From assembly GCA_946410125.1 (NCBI GenBank), contig CAMJZF010000001.1, positions 3,005-67,004 of the forward strand: a stretch of 64,000 bases of DNA. Direction: 5' to 3'. The position numbers and the translations under genes are program-made. The notes beneath the pieces are model-generated. The model was not told the origin of the DNA and made no database searches. It saw nothing but the letters and a program-made list of their open reading frames with translations. This stretch comes from an uncultured Prevotellaceae bacterium (GTDB lineage Bacteria; Bacteroidota; Bacteroidia; Bacteroidales; Muribaculaceae). Shown piece after piece: positions 56,124 to 61,956 of this stretch. How positions within the stretch are numbered: the stretch's first letter is position 1; each line of letters begins with the position of its first letter.

Positions 56124-59100
56124 TTAGAATGAAACATTAAGACCGAAAGTAACATTTAGCGGGATAGGATAGCCAAAGTTGGGATTCTCGGGATCCACAC
56201 CAGTGAACTTTTTGCTCTTGATGGTTAACAAGTTCTGGGCCGATACATACAAGCGCAAGCGTGCGAGGCGCATCTTGTCACACACGTTGCTGCCAAAGTT
56301 GTAACCAATCTGGACGTTTCGCATTTTAGCATAGGAACCATTCTCAACAAAGTAGGTGCTGACGCGCTTCTCATTGTTGTTGTCCATTGTGCTGACAGCA
56401 GGAATGTTGGAGTTTGGATTTAAGGGAGTCCATGCATCGAGCAAGCGACGGCCCTTGTTCAAGTTAGAGATATTCAGACCACTCCACAAGTCGGTCTCGC
56501 GCTTCAGGTCACTGATCACGTCAACACCCTGTGCACCCTGCCAGAACATGGTGAAGTCCCAATTCTTGTATTCGAGATAGATGTTAAGACCCCAAGAGAA
56601 ATCGGGCACTGGCGAGTAAATCCATTGCTGGTCTGTCTCGTTAATGACTCCATCTTCATTCAGGTCTTTCCAGCGGATGCGACCAAGGCCAGCACCATCT
56701 TGTGCGGCGTGGTTGTCAATCTCGTCTTGACTCTTAAAGATACCGTCATAGACATATCCTACTTGAGCACCCATTGGATGTCCCACTACGCTCTCAACAC
56801 CATTGCCACCGAAAGCGCCGTTGGCTGCCAGAGTCTCGGGAAGCTTGGTCACCTTGTTGCGATAAGTACCGATGTTACCAGAGATGTCATAATGGAAATC
56901 GCCAGCCGAACCACGATAACCGATGTTCAACTCAATACCCTTATTGGTCATCTCACCAGCATTAATCCACTGGCTACTACCCTCTCCCATCACACCGATG
57001 CCGGGCATGTTAACCAAGATGTCGGTAGTCTTCTTGTAGTACCACTCAAACGAGCCATACAACGCATTGCGCAAAAAGCCGAAGTCAAAACCAAGGTTGG
57101 TCTGTGTCGTGGTCTCCCACTTGAGGTTATCGTTACCTAACTGGTTGCGCTTGAAACCACTGGCAAGGGTTTGGCCGCCATTGGTGCCGGCAATATCATA
57201 ACTGGTACCGTAGCTCTGGCCACCGAAACCAGCCTCGCCATAATTGCTCTCAAAGATAGTGTAGCGGGCAATATTGGAGATCTCCTGGTTACCAGTCTGT
57301 CCCCAAGATGCTCTCAGCTTAAAGTTATCGAGCCACTCAAGTCCCTTCATGAATGGTTCCTCACTGATACGCCAACCAGCACTCACCGATGGGAAGGTAC
57401 CATAACGGTTGTTGCGACCAAAGCGGCTTGAACCATCATGACGGATAGTTACACTAGCCAGATAACGGTCGTTATAGGTATAGTTCACTTTGCCGAAGAA
57501 GGAAACCAGAGAGTAGCCTTCGCCAGAACCATAAGCCTCAGCTTTGCCAACTGCAGAGTTGGGCCACATGTAATTTGGATTCAACACAGCAAAGTCATAA
57601 GCCTTGCCGCTGAGCCATGAGTCGTCCTCACGGTTGAGCTCGACACCAACCATGATGTCACCGCGATGCAAATCGCGTTCCAAATTGTAAGTGGCAATCG
57701 CGTTCCACATCCACTTGGTCCAGTGCTCCTGCTTGGCCTCAACAGCGTTGATAGGATTGGCAACTGTACCCTCGGTAATAGGATAAGTGAAAATGCGTTG
57801 CTGTTTTTGAGCATAGTCAAGACCGAAGGTTGTCTTGATGTTGAAATTAGCAAAGGGATTAATGTTGATGAATGCATCACCAAACATACGCCAATAGGTG
57901 TAGCGGTTGTCGCTGTTGCGGTCAAGACGAGCAACAGGGTTCTCACGGTCGGGATAACCGCCTACTGGACCAGCATAATGGCCATCGGTAGTATAAACAG
58001 GTAACGATGGGTTAAACTGAAGCACATTCTCAAGGAATCCGCCAGGAGCCTGAAGCTCATTGGTGCGGTTTACTGTGAAATGCTCACCCACAGTAATAAG
58101 TTTGCGCTCTCCTACGTTCAATAGCTTGTAAGTTGTATTCATACGAGCCGAGAAGCGCTGGAAGTCAGACTGCTTGATGATACCTTTATTTTTATAATAA
58201 CCGAGAGAGAAGAAAGCAGAACCATTCTCAGTGCCATTGCTCAGCGACACATTATATTGCTGAACTAAGCCAGTGCGAGTGGTCTCTTTGAACCAGTCGG
58301 TATCGGCAGCGGGTGTCGTGCCGGCAGGATCGAGGAACTTGTTCATTGTGATGCCGTTGAGCACGGGAACACCGTTGGCATTGTAGCTCCAGTCATAATG
58401 ATATCCCAAACCATTCAAATTGGGGTTCAGGCCATCATTGACATAACCTTGCCACATCATTTGGCCAAACTCTTTGGCATTCAACACTTTCATCTTGTTG
58501 GCATAGGTCTGTACCGACAGGCTGGCATCAAAGTCAATTTTCACTTTTCCGTCTTTGCCGCCCTTGGTGGTAATGATAATCACACCGTTGGCAGCACGGC
58601 TACCGTAGATAGACGCCGAAGCGGCATCCTTGAGCACCTGGATGCTCTCGATGTCGTTGCCGTTGAGTTCGTGCATACCGGCTTTGGTGGGAACACCGTC
58701 AATGATGTAAAGAGGGTCGTTGTTGTTGAGCGTGCCAGTACCACGAATACGGACTGTTGCAGCACCCGATGGGTTACCGTCGGCCGCGATGTTCATGCCT
58801 GGAACACGGCCCTGCATCGCCTTGATGGGGTTGTTCTCGTTCTGTTTTGCCAGATCGTTCACACTAACTACCGACACAGCTCCGGTCAGGTCGGCCTTGC
58901 GCTGGGTGGTGTAACCCGTCACAACAATCTCGTTCAGAGAAATTGCATCCTCTTTCATGGTGACTACCATGCCGTCACTAGCGGGCATCTCAACATCGAG
59001 GTAACCCACATAGGAGAAAACGAGAACTGCTCCGGGATTCACTTTGAGGGCAAAACTGCCGTCAAAGTCGGTCACTGTACCATTAGTGGTACCTTTCTCA

Positions 59101-59234
59101 ATCACTGATGCACCGATGACGGTTTCACCCGTTTCATCTACGACTGTGCCAGTGATCTCGGTCTGTGCGTACGATATCAGGTTACACACAAACACGAGAG
59201 CTAAGCTCAATAGAAATCTTTTAGGTTTTCTCAT
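56124..59234 (-). CDS. susC: SusC/RagA TonB-dependent transporter
   Basis: PLYIIDG, IQVLKDAASASIYGSRAANGVIIITTK, LKWETT, terminal F. Confidence 0.97.
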   Translation of the reverse strand: MRKPKRFLLSLALVFVCNLISYAQTEITGTVVDETGETVIGASVIEKGTTNGTVTDFDGSFALKVNPGAVLVFSYVGYLDVEMPASDGMVVTMKEDAISLNEIVVTGYTTQRKADLTGAVSVVSVNDLAKQNENNPIKAMQGRVPGMNIAADGNPSGAATVRIRGTGTLNNNDPLYIIDGVPTKAGMHELNGNDIESIQVLKDAASASIYGSRAANGVIIITTKGGKDGKVKIDFDASLSVQTYANKMKVLNAKEFGQMMWQGYVNDGLNPNLNGLGYHYDWSYNANGVPVLNGITMNKFLDPAGTTPAADTDWFKETTRTGLVQQYNVSLSNGTENGSAFFSLGYYKNKGIIKQSDFQRFSARMNTTYKLLNVGERKLITVGEHFTVNRTNELQAPGGFLENVLQFNPSLPVYTTDGHYAGPVGGYPDRENPVARLDRNSDNRYTYWRMFGDAFININPFANFNIKTTFGLDYAQKQQRIFTYPITEGTVANPINAVEAKQEHWTKWMWNAIATYNLERDLHRGDIMVGVELNREDDSWLSGKAYDFAVLNPNYMWPNSAVGKAEAYGSGEGYSLVSFFGKVNYTYNDRYLASVTIRHDGSSRFGRNNRYGTFPSVSAGWRISEEPFMKGLEWLDNFKLRASWGQTGNQEISNIARYTIFESNYGEAGFGGQSYGTSYDIAGTNGGQTLASGFKRNQLGNDNLKWETTTQTNLGFDFGFLRNALYGSFEWYYKKTTDILVNMPGIGVMGEGSSQWINAGEMTNKGIELNIGYRGSAGDFHYDISGNIGTYRNKVTKLPETLAANGAFGGNGVESVVGHPMGAQVGYVYDGIFKSQDEIDNHAAQDGAGLGRIRWKDLNEDGVINETDQQWIYSPVPDFSWGLNIYLEYKNWDFTMFWQGAQGVDVISDLKRETDLWSGLNISNLNKGRRLLDAWTPLNPNSNIPAVSTMDNNNEKRVSTYFVENGSYAKMRNVQIGYNFGSNVCDKMRLARLRLYVSAQNLLTIKSKKFTGVDPENPNFGYPIPLNVTFGLNVSF

Positions 59235-59282
59235 TCTTGCTTGGTTTTGATTAGTACATTAATTAATAAAAAATATTTTTGG

Positions 59283-59290
59283 CAAAGATA
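59283..59290 (-). promoter_or_regulatory. susC operon -7 promoter box
   Basis: TATCTTTG on minus strand about 50 bp upstream of the start. Confidence 0.7.
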
Positions 59291-59348
59291 AACGGTTGGA
59301 AGGCAAAGAAATATAAAAAATAGTTCTTATGGTATTAAAATTGTTTCA

Positions 59349-59381
59349 ATGCAACATATTTAATAGCAAATGAAACATTTT
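59349..59381. promoter_or_regulatory. Putative HTCS operator (direct repeat, 21-bp period)
   Basis: ATGCAACATATT 59349 and ATGAAACATTTT 59370 upstream of the susC promoter. Confidence 0.5.
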
Positions 59382-59420
59382 TGTCGTGTCTTTATTGGTC
59401 TTTGCATTAACTTTGTAATA

Positions 59421-59510
59421 CAAAAAAAGAAGGTGTGGACTCATGACATTTCACTTTCTGAACCAGGTCTGCGACAACCGTTGAGAATAGATGAAATGTT
59501 GGTCCACACC
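59421..59510 (+). ncRNA. Candidate structured small RNA A
   Basis: TAACTTTG box 59408-59415; stems GGTGTGGAC/GTCCACACC and ACATTTCA/TGAAATGT; apical CTGCGAC. Confidence 0.5.
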
Positions 59511-59539
59511 ATTATTATGTTATATAATATGGTGAAACC

Positions 59540-59636
59540 CTGAACTCTCTATTCTCATCTTACCAAGGTCGCAGTTTGGTTCAGAAAAGAGTCAGCAACT
59601 CATTTTGCCAGAATGTTATTACTCTCTCATAGAGTA
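59540..59636 (-). ncRNA. Candidate structured small RNA B (same loop motifs as A)
   Basis: TATATTTG box 59643-59650 (minus); CTGACTCT/AGAGTTCAG and ACCAA/TTGGT stems; apical CTGCGAC. Confidence 0.5.
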
Positions 59637-59760
59637 TGAGTGCAAATATAACGATTTTTTCTTGTTTTTAAAATGCCATGAATAAAAAACCGAAAACTTA
59701 TGCACTAAAAAAATGAAAAACAACAAATTTGTACATTCCTACCAAAAATATTAAACTGAA

Positions 59761-61956
59761 TTATTTCTTGCGGCACTCGCCTGGCACTGTTCCATACTCA
59801 TCCTTGTAGCATTTAGTAAAATAGGATGGAGAGCCGAATCCTACCTTATAGGCAATCTCGCTCACTGTCATTGCTGTGGTGGTGAGCAATTGATACGCTG
59901 CCTGTAGTCGAGCCCTGCGCAGCAAATCGACAGGCGTGTTTCCAGTGATCGCTTTTATCTTGCGATAGAGTTGCACACGGCTAAGCCCAATCTCTCGGCT
60001 TAGGTCCTCAACGCTCAATTCGCTGTTGCCCATTTTGCTTTCCAGAATAGTCTTAAAGCGCTCGATGAAGGGATCGCTGATATAATCTACGGCCGATTCA
60101 GACTGTTCGCTTGCAGTTTCGGCAGGAAGCTTGGCGCTCCACAAGTCTTTTAACTGATGTCGGCTCTGAAGCAGATTGGCAATGCGGGCTAGCAGCAAAT
60201 CGCTTGAGAAGGGTTTCGTGATATAGGCATCGGCGCCACTCTCATATCCTTCAATCTGATGCTCACTCAGTGCCCTCGCCGTGAGCAGTATTACTGGGAT
60301 GTGGCAAGTGATTATATTGGTTTTCACACTTTGGCAAAACTCCAGGCCGTTCATGTTTGGCATCATTACGTCCGACACAATGATATCGGGCACCAGCTCT
60401 TCAGCGATTTCTAATCCATGCTGCCCGTCGCAGGCCTCAAGCACTTTATATTTCCCTTTAAGGATAGAATTGAGATAAGCTCGAATGTCGGCATTGTCGT
60501 CAACAATCAGCACGGTGGACGCATTCTCGTCAATCTCGTCAACACTAGATACAGTATCAACTGGGCGAGTTACTATCATTGCGTCTATCTCATCGCCATC
60601 CATGCTCGAACTGGGAGCTCCCACTTGGGCGTCAAGCAACTTTGAGATAAGTTTAGTAAGATGCCGTGTGTTGCGTCTCACTATAGAAAAGATGCCATTA
60701 GTTTCCTCGCTGGCGTTTTTAATCTCAGGGGTTTCGGCAAGCTGTTCAAGTGGACCTTCAATAAGGGTAAGTGGAGTGCGCAGCTCATGACTGACTTGGG
60801 TGTAGAAATCAAGTTGGTCTCGCTCCATCTGCCGGCGCTCATCCTGTATTTTTGCGCGTTGCAGATAATACATGTAAATGCCTAGCAACAATGTGAGCAA
60901 CAGCCCTATTGCCACCAAGGCAAGCCATGAAATCGTGCGCTGGCTGTTGAGTTCACGCATATATCCGCTGGCTTTCTCGTGCAGCTGCTCAATATTCTTT
61001 GACTGCCTTATCACCTCATCACTCTCAAGCTTGAGCACGCGAGCATTGTCATGAGTGACCAAGGCCGACATGAATTTTGTCTCTTTCTTATAGGGCTTGC
61101 CCTCAAGAATGTCTACTGCAAGCTGTATCAGCTGGTCGCCATGAGTAGGATAAATATAGGACGCCTCAAGCAACGAGTCGCGCACTAGCCTGATACCGCC
61201 ATCCTCGCCTGGCAAACCGTCGATTCCACAAAACAGAGGCAGCTTCTTGCCTTTCTCACTAAATGCCTTGCGTGCGCCCATCGCCGAACGGTCGTTCATG
61301 CCAAACACTAAATCAACGTCAACACCATCGTGGGCATCAAGCCATTGTTTTACTATGGAGTAGGCAGTTGGTTCAGTCCAGTCGCCCTGAAGGGTCGATA
61401 CCACCTCTATGCCAGGATGCTGCGATATGGCACTCACAAAGCCATCGTGACGCTCAATAGCTGGCGAAGAGCCCTTCAGACCCATCACTTCCATTATCTT
61501 TCCCTTTCCGTTGAGCCTCGTGGCAATATATTCGCCCATCAAGCGCCCCATCTCATAGTTGTCGGCACCCATATATGCCGTATATTTCTTAGAGCTCGTC
61601 TTCCGCTCAAACACGATGACCGGAATGCCCTTGTCATAGGCCCTATCAATCGCCGACGAGATAGTAGAAACCTGATTAGGCGCAACAATCAGTAAGTCGA
61701 TACCACAGTCTATGAGGCTGTCGATCTGCTGAATCTGACGCTCGTCGCTATCGTAGGCCGCCGCAAAACGCAACACAACATTATCATGAAAATAGGCTCC
61801 AATTTTCAATTCTGAGTTTTGTTTGTTGCGCCAAATATCATCAGAGCACTGCGAAACACCTATTCTATATTTCTTAGTGCCATGAGAGCAAGAGGCCAAA
61901 ATTGCTAAAAATAAAACTATGATTATCCAATAAACATTTCTCATGTTTTTATACAT
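59761..61956 (-). CDS. Fructose-sensing hybrid two-component regulator (BT1754-like) lacking the HATPase domain
   Basis: Periplasmic-binding-protein sensor (GVSQCSDDIWR), TM, HisKA (SHELRTPL), REC (DVMMP), AraC HTH. Confidence 0.88.
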   Translation of the reverse strand: MYKNMRNVYWIIIVLFLAILASCSHGTKKYRIGVSQCSDDIWRNKQNSELKIGAYFHDNVVLRFAAAYDSDERQIQQIDSLIDCGIDLLIVAPNQVSTISSAIDRAYDKGIPVIVFERKTSSKKYTAYMGADNYEMGRLMGEYIATRLNGKGKIMEVMGLKGSSPAIERHDGFVSAISQHPGIEVVSTLQGDWTEPTAYSIVKQWLDAHDGVDVDLVFGMNDRSAMGARKAFSEKGKKLPLFCGIDGLPGEDGGIRLVRDSLLEASYIYPTHGDQLIQLAVDILEGKPYKKETKFMSALVTHDNARVLKLESDEVIRQSKNIEQLHEKASGYMRELNSQRTISWLALVAIGLLLTLLLGIYMYYLQRAKIQDERRQMERDQLDFYTQVSHELRTPLTLIEGPLEQLAETPEIKNASEETNGIFSIVRRNTRHLTKLISKLLDAQVGAPSSSMDGDEIDAMIVTRPVDTVSSVDEIDENASTVLIVDDNADIRAYLNSILKGKYKVLEACDGQHGLEIAEELVPDIIVSDVMMPNMNGLEFCQSVKTNIITCHIPVILLTARALSEHQIEGYESGADAYITKPFSSDLLLARIANLLQSRHQLKDLWSAKLPAETASEQSESAVDYISDPFIERFKTILESKMGNSELSVEDLSREIGLSRVQLYRKIKAITGNTPVDLLRRARLQAAYQLLTTTAMTVSEIAYKVGFGSPSYFTKCYKDEYGTVPGECRKK

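Follow-up and report, generated by a model that had tools for sequence, protein, structure and literature searches.

A conserved RNA element with two predicted alternative folds, terminator and long rod, between a hybrid regulator gene and susC in rumen Prevotella-like bacteria

The stretch of DNA analysed here, called the window, is 64,000 nucleotides long and comes from an uncultured Prevotellaceae bacterium. Near its right end two minus-strand genes leave a gap of 526 bp (59235–59760), which is the seat of the element described below. The genes on either side are:

56124–59234, minus strand, SusC-like gene with its start codon at 59234
59761–61956, minus strand, hybrid regulator of 731 residues, the 3′ end of which borders the gap

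In Pfam the regulator displays a periplasmic sugar-binding region, HisKA, a receiver and an AraC-type HTH, and the same check of 59761–61956 gives no HATPase_c match. Orthologues of the regulator are found in many loci, with about 700–745 residues aligned and 59–74% protein identity. Since these orthologues have a similar length in many loci, the HATPase-less form looks like a conserved family trait and not a truncation. On the 3′ side of susC lie susD and then five more minus-strand ORFs of 295–559 residues. Gene order and ORF sizes of the window resemble those of a fructan-type PUL; the Pfam check covered susC, susD and the regulator, and the fructan-type label derives from the order and size of the other five ORFs.

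An earlier sequence-only reading of this gap described two convergent structured RNAs, A on the plus and B on the minus strand, with three identical motifs, different closing stems, a further hairpin between them and an inward-pointing promoter box for each. The hairpins A and B, the three common motifs, the middle hairpin and both boxes are all in place. The features of the gap are as follows, where the rod is the long fold of a whole minus-strand RNA molecule:

59643–59650, minus strand, P_B, −7 box TAnnTTTG of the minus-strand RNA, read from the sequence; an equivalent box is present in 32 of 33 unique units
59617–59640, minus strand, H1, a 5′ hairpin right after the predicted start, seen in the folds
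59608–59616, minus strand, conserved 5′ motif (ACAUUGUGGGA-like in relatives), a possible partner, in the rod, of the 3′ strand of the terminator stem
59540–59595, minus strand, arm B, local hairpin or 5′ arm of the long duplex, from folds and covarying helix pairs
59507–59534, minus strand, middle hairpin or apex of the rod; 89% of cells paired in 33 sequences
59432–59510, minus strand, reverse complement of A, terminator hairpin or 3′ arm of the long duplex, with a 9-bp G+C-rich closing stem
59422–59431, minus strand, U-run after the terminator stem; a T-run directly follows the stem in 29 of 33 units
59408–59415, plus strand, P_A, −7 box TAnnTTTG of the predicted antisense RNA A; aligned in about 30 of 33 units
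59317–59382, no strand, operator-like symmetric region, from conserved blocks in a 29-locus alignment and inverted repeat I13
59283–59290, minus strand, −7 box of the susC promoter, some 50 nt ahead of the ATG (59234)

The A region consists of an outer stem (59432–59440 with 59502–59510) and a core hairpin at 59446–59499 on the plus strand. The 9-bp outer stem is identical in most of 46 sequences, and the few changes fall at its inner end. The 3′ strand of the middle hairpin overlaps the first 4 nt of the terminator stem. Arm B, when folded locally, has an outer stem, a conserved middle helix, an inner stem and a loop. Three blocks are common to A and B, of 11 nt (I14), 7 nt and 10 nt (I16). 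The 7-nt block is the loop, located at 59469–59475, and its reverse complement is located at 59568–59574. The spacing of the blocks differs between A and B, being 3 versus 2 nt and 6 versus 10 nt. None of 100 shuffles of the window contains the combined block pattern, and in the 2.38-Mb assembly a stricter pattern of three blocks hits only the A and B sites. The folding energy of A is −36.4 kcal/mol (z −5.8 against shuffles). That of B alone is −14.7 kcal/mol (z −0.6), which is not more stable than shuffles; the B hairpin therefore rests on comparative evidence, not on stability.

The 5′ hairpin H1 has a counterpart at the same position in most of 32 folded relatives, with unrelated stem sequences. 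It is more stable on the minus than on the plus strand in 25 of the 32, and 3 of 4 pairs display changes on both sides. In the close relative represented by loci L033 and L070, the unit is about 98% identical to that of the window apart from a 21-nt insertion, with a small hairpin of its own, between H1 and B. On the minus strand no terminator was found between B and the A hairpin. The generic promoter and terminator scan calls no terminator in this region; its loop limit of 3–8 nt excludes the compound hairpin, and its promoter model, the sigma-70 consensus, is inapplicable to Bacteroidota.

Two further observations concern the side of the regulator. Between the regulator stop and the P_B box lies an imperfect 24-nt direct repeat (59681–59704 and 59712–59735; 71% identity, 31-nt spacing), a possible control site for P_B. 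Judged by eye in the window, no strong hairpin is seen between the regulator stop codon and P_B, and for this reason the regulator mRNA may end at the same hairpin in the A region that would terminate the minus-strand RNA.

The sequence-only reading took the element to be undescribed, which agrees with our searches. A cmscan of 59000–60000 on both strands against Rfam 15, with E up to 10, returns only three chance-level matches, all outside the element. BLASTN within the genus finds the whole unit at 78–85% nucleotide identity, in relatives with 65–69% protein identity for the regulator and down to 46% for SusC. The non-coding unit is thus better conserved than the adjoining proteins. It travels with susC.

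A covariance model of A and B together had been suggested. The model built from A hairpins only (R1) does find homologs: A-type copies occur in 16 of the 133 genomes searched within the genus, and 0 of 144 sampled genomes from other genera of the family contain one. The model scores B at 7–11 bits, which is the noise level, showing that A and B are not mergeable into one model. In the 5′ strand, MAFFT shifts B by one column relative to A, which stands in the way of a joint structural alignment of the two. The three-block pattern specific to the window has 0 matches in 200 genomes of the family, a result that is uninformative because the relatives lack one base in two of the blocks.

An exact 22-nt pattern, run over one genome per prokaryote species, identified 34 loci, every one in a MAG that bears the label Prevotella, Prevotellaceae or another Bacteroidales name; many of the isolate names refer to the rumen or to ruminants (the cattle-rumen RUG series, sheep, goat, yak and buffalo). 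By the design of this search, 22 nt of the A arm are fixed in the resulting set of 33 sequences. A metagenome scan anchored on the outer stem and U-run only is free of that bias, and it gave 27 instances (contigs), 13 of them new, after about 90 unrelated hairpins caught by the same pattern had been filtered out. Among the unrelated matches is a 72-nt palindromic hairpin with A-runs and T-runs at its flanks, which matches the outer-stem pattern on both strands; it turns up in L078, L080, L085 and some 30 further metagenome loci, and human gut is the label of several of the many assemblies that contain it. With the same stem sequence, it appears to be an element in its own right that resembles a bidirectional terminator.

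The unit stands about 200 nt upstream of a SusC-like gene, in the direction of B, at every locus with the flank covered, in agreement with the earlier placement of the element at the head of a PUL. Where the upstream flank is covered, an orthologue of the regulator (59–74% protein identity) usually lies directly before the unit. The SusC proteins of the carriers form two clades, 80–98% or 40–48% identical. Two units each are present in G243, G293 and G301; those of G243 and G293 are on one contig, each before its own susC, and the second unit of G243 precedes the second susC with no regulator in front.

Three genomes (G233, G228 and G296) have A only, in decayed form, with no B in the sequence read of G233 and G296. 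The A remnants of loci L010 (1440–1560), L011 and L039 have mutated motifs, and no B is present in the sequence read of L010 and L039. The L010 remnant precedes a susC with 90% identity, and the covered part of that locus shows no regulator. The remnants suggest that the arms decay after loss of the partner. Within the genomes and metagenomes searched, the family is undescribed and was seen only in rumen Prevotella-like bacteria.

Two other explanations of the sequence were considered and rejected. A 57-residue ORF at 59370–59543 contains single-base indels among relatives, so it is not read as coding. An invertible promoter was dismissed since the arms enclose no more than about 40 bp, and this stretch contains no promoter.

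The strand of the RNA can be read from the differences between A and B. At positions in the common blocks where the arms differ, the base is G or U in arm B and A or C in arm A. Such differences produce G·U pairs on the minus strand and A·C pairs on the plus strand, and 16 sequences contain 63 G·U versus 0 A·C. The direction of these differences is, in our reading of the alignments, the strongest evidence for the strand. The larger set of 46 unique sequences displays the same asymmetry. The long-range pairs comprise 1224 Watson-Crick, 141 G·U, 12 A·C and 21 other cells, and the terminator hairpin comprises 969, 108, 11 and 7 of these, respectively. Point changes in the A hairpin yield G·U on the minus strand and a mismatch on the plus strand in 5–6 lineages (G222, G299, G303, G301b and second copies). 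All five transitions in metagenome variant L100 replace a Watson-Crick pair of the minus strand by G·U. The minus strand also folds more stably than the plus strand in 27 of 33 sequences.

Because the motifs are identical on opposite strands, the minus strand contains both B and a segment complementary to it, the reverse complement of A. In the full-length minus transcript of the window these two segments pair with each other, with −72.2 kcal/mol and z −5.9. In 31 of 32 sequences the structure of minimum energy is this long-range fold, with 0 of the 9 terminator pairs. When the terminator is forced to form, the fold is less stable by 7.3 kcal/mol on average (range 0–16). RNAalifold of 16 units gives the same long-range pairing as the consensus. 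If B and the terminator are joined by an artificial linker in place of the apex, RNAalifold picks the local folds instead, indicating that the two states are close in energy.

Both folds are well accommodated by the sequences. In the set of 33, 95.6% of cells are paired in the long-range structure and 96.5% in the local one (B plus terminator hairpins), versus 28–52% in slid-partner controls. In each structure, only four pairs vary on both sides. The covariation scores exceed all shuffles (0/500), a control inflated by the relatedness of the sequences. Covariation is thin because the element is highly conserved.

For the long-range fold, one pair of positions unpaired in either local hairpin is G-C in 28 sequences, A-U in 2 and G·U in 3. 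A second pair, likewise unpaired locally, is A-U in 19, G·U in 12 and G-C in 2. A U-A co-insertion in the subtype of the window also supports this fold. For the local folds, the inner helix of the terminator covaries (GC 28, AU 4, GU 5), with multiple compensated changes in L128. In B, the outer stem changes from C-G to U-A, the inner stem does the same, and L193 has a G·U co-insertion in the inner stem; the local B hairpin has the most mismatches. A change from C to U at one position in the G223 lineage is accompanied by changes in both of its alternative partners. The comparative data thus argue that both folds are under selection.

The rod involves the terminator stem from both sides. The first four bases of this stem are taken up by the middle hairpin, and its 3′ strand by the 5′ motif, so that the terminator is fully dismantled. 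The last 9 nt before the U-run pair with the 5′ motif in 27 of 32 minimum-energy folds, and in the subtype of the window itself this pairing is weak. Insertions of 50–60 nt occur in the apex, between B and the terminator stem, in L047, L057 and L072; such tolerance is expected for the tip of a long hairpin.

The identical motifs had been interpreted as loops of independent twin RNAs. That interpretation is not supported: the motifs are the paired helices of the long-range duplex that, on the minus strand, joins B to the reverse complement of A. The long duplex in a read-through transcript, mentioned in the same reading as an aside, turns out to be its best-supported feature.

The region between the terminator and susC is ordered as P_A box, half-site, central palindrome, mirrored half-site, susC −7 box, about 50 nt and ATG. 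The operator-like part consists of outer inverted half-sites at 59317–59328 and 59368–59382 and a central palindrome at 59342–59356. In relatives, the outer half-sites are of the TCGTTC / GAACGA type and the centre is a TGTT..AACA palindrome. This region is likely the binding site of the regulator. The susC box is 45–60 nt before the start codon in most loci. Measured from the terminator, the P_A box is found in 24 of 33 units; the alignment from terminator to susC raises this to about 30 of 33, with the aligned box at a fixed distance from the operator. Seven loci have a 50–70-nt insertion between the terminator and the P_A box. The second copies in G243 and G293 have an absent or degenerate P_A box and keep everything else. 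Both inward-pointing boxes of the earlier reading are thus conserved. The alignment and the order of the parts make P_A and the susC promoter a divergent pair around a common operator. The plus-strand RNA A, predicted to extend from 59422 to about 59520 with a length of about 95–105 nt, is probably real.

The observed anatomy, conservation, strand bias, covariation for both folds and promoter boxes are the ground on which we infer how the element is transcribed and terminated, its default state, its trigger and its effect on susC. We lean to one two-state minus-strand RNA, terminator versus rod, that would serve mainly as a switch in cis. A and B would be the arms of a single RNA of about 205–215 nt with the same direction as susC. 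It would start from its own promoter P_B (59650–59643), just behind the regulator gene, and end at an intrinsic terminator, with the stem at 59510–59432 and the U-run at 59431–59422, about 190 nt before the susC start codon. One state would comprise the local B hairpin and the terminator hairpin (the reverse complement of A). The other would be the whole-molecule rod, with B base-paired to the loop and inner arms of the terminator hairpin. The two would be mutually exclusive, as the rod blocks the strong terminator stem, and the choice between them would determine how much transcription coming from P_B and the regulator gene continues into the control region of susC and the operon. P_A would make a DonS-like antisense RNA A that is fully complementary to the terminator arm, competes with B for it and is presumably co-induced with susC.

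A fuller version is a three-part switch, in which B, acting in cis, and A, acting in trans, are rivals for one terminator arm. The P_A and susC promoters, as a pair under the control of the regulator, would then settle by way of RNA A the fate of the upstream transcript: termination, read-through or destruction. We regard this version as doubtful. A difficulty for the two-state switch itself is that a rod formed by default during transcription would leave the conserved terminator little chance to act, unless some factor holds B.

The conserved susC box downstream of the terminator indicates that susC needs no read-through and that the RNA could act in trans as a separate gene; it is the main argument for a trans-acting or insulating role. 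A stand-alone pair of RNAs acting post-transcriptionally in trans is an explanation to which we give some weight, though we think it rather unlikely. The minus-strand RNA would always terminate and refold as the rod, which would act on mRNAs or hold a protein, and RNA A would be an anti-sRNA, induced with susC from the common operator, that releases or destroys its partner by forming a perfect duplex with the terminator arm. In favour of this, sRNA genes usually consist of just such parts, a promoter of their own, a stabilising 5′ hairpin and a terminator, and PUL-linked sRNAs (FopS, DonS and SrcF) are known in the phylum. Thermodynamically the rod is the ground state, a conserved promoter belonging to susC lies downstream, and P_A is both conserved and tied to the operator. 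However, there is one copy per susC even in two-copy genomes, with orientation and distance fixed, which argues for action in cis. Loci that have lost B and the regulator retain no more than a decayed A, a further sign of linkage in cis. The second copies without P_A keep the RNA nonetheless. Pairing with the start region of susC is not above random either: RNAduplex against −55 to +45 of the cognate susC in 28 loci, a crude test, gives a mean z of +0.3 and no recurrent site.

Two independent convergent sRNAs, A on the plus and B on the minus strand, might instead bind a common protein or ligand by the same loop motifs and differ in their closing stems. Such twins would agree with the conservation of both promoter boxes, with the three blocks identical in the window and with the fact that each hairpin can fold and has some compensatory change. 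They would not be expected to differ directionally, as A and B do, nor to covary where neither hairpin has a pair. The A-hairpin substitutions, which are mismatches on the plus strand and G·U on the minus strand in 5–6 lineages, also speak against them, as do the noise-level score of B (7–11 bits) under the covariance model of A and the units that lack P_A and are otherwise intact. Moreover, with no terminator after B and before the A hairpin, a B transcript must run into A. We consider independent twins improbable. We find it most improbable that the element acts at the DNA level only, as a protein site or a plain bidirectional terminator that insulates the regulator from the susC promoter, with B as a relic of an inverted duplication. 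The A hairpin does lie between convergent promoters with U-rich tracts on both sides, and the sequence of its outer stem is invariant beyond what pairing alone requires. Yet the asymmetry of G·U over A·C is a signature of RNA and not of duplex DNA, and the block spacing differs between A and B, unlike that of protein sites. B and its flanks keep compensatory changes over many species in which the neighbouring proteins diverge to 60–70%, and remnants with A only decay.

The element can be compared with several known systems. Cao et al. in 2016 reportedly linked DonS RNAs to ECF-sigma/anti-sigma PULs for host glycans. DonS-type RNAs of Bacteroides PULs are 78–128 nt long, are encoded divergently to susC homologs and lower their expression (PMC7366714). 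The predicted RNA A is similar in size, lies between the regulator and susC, points away from susC, has its own TAnnTTTG box at 59408–59415 and is antisense to transcripts from the regulator side. It is thus, like DonS, upstream of and divergent to susC with its own predicted promoter. The present PUL differs in being HTCS-controlled and, judged by gene order, of the fructan type instead of the ECF-sigma/anti-sigma host-glycan type, and its sense strand has a promoter, a terminator and an internal look-alike, B. On this comparison, which was made with the published description of DonS, a DonS-like antisense RNA is plausible here.

The minus-strand RNA is reminiscent of an attenuator or riboswitch platform. 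Its G+C-rich stem followed by a U-run is typical of an intrinsic terminator. Upstream segments are complementary to both strands and the interior of this terminator, and both alternatives covary. A conserved alternative pairing excludes the terminator in 31 of 32 sequences, with the 5′ motif taking part in 27 of 32. In contrast to a short anti-terminator helix, the anti-terminator here is a whole-molecule rod of about 35 pairs. Attenuators have no promoter between terminator and gene, whereas here a separate conserved susC promoter follows the terminator. No aptamer or sensor was identified in the element; RNA A is a candidate selector by complementarity only.

The FopS/GibS RNAs of Bacteroides thetaiotaomicron are 65–70 nt long, consist of a single-stranded 5′ seed and a terminator, are multicopy and pair with the start region of susC (PMC11697453); the family is deposited in Rfam (PMC11697453). 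They have in common with the present element the tie of an sRNA to the control of SusC-like transporters in Bacteroidota. Identity was rejected, as the present RNA is about 210 nt long, almost wholly paired and present in one copy per susC, with no Rfam match, and the crude test on 28 loci gave no seed-like pairing signal with the susC start region. SrcF of Segatella copri is a 272-nt sRNA that is repressed by fructose via the inulin HTCS (bioRxiv 10.1101/2024.04.05.588293), and it is reported to be absent from other Prevotellaceae (bioRxiv 10.1101/2024.04.05.588293). It resembles the present element as a structured Prevotellaceae sRNA functionally tied to a fructan HTCS. Its listed coordinate, compared with the locus-tag number of its regulator, places it apparently not beside the regulator gene. 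Identity was rejected on locus and on the published probe primers, which have no motif in common with the element. The earlier claim of novelty thus stands against these two RNAs as well.

PUL control in Bacteroidota is understood mostly via sensor-regulators. To our knowledge, the RNA layers of PULs, namely DonS, FopS and SrcF, are newly emerging and all come from human-gut model species, and we know of no PUL in which the coupling of a hybrid two-component regulator to such an RNA-level switch has been described. If the element were only an insulating terminator and an old duplication, the result would be a modest annotation of a new sRNA-like locus. Its anatomy joins a two-state fold, a terminator and an antisense partner that is mimicked by the sense RNA, and from this concrete testable predictions follow. 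It may offer a compact natural terminator/anti-terminator module for Bacteroidota, where genetic parts are few. The element would represent the first RNA family, conserved and structured, to be linked with an HTCS-type fructan PUL among the dominant fibre degraders of the rumen.
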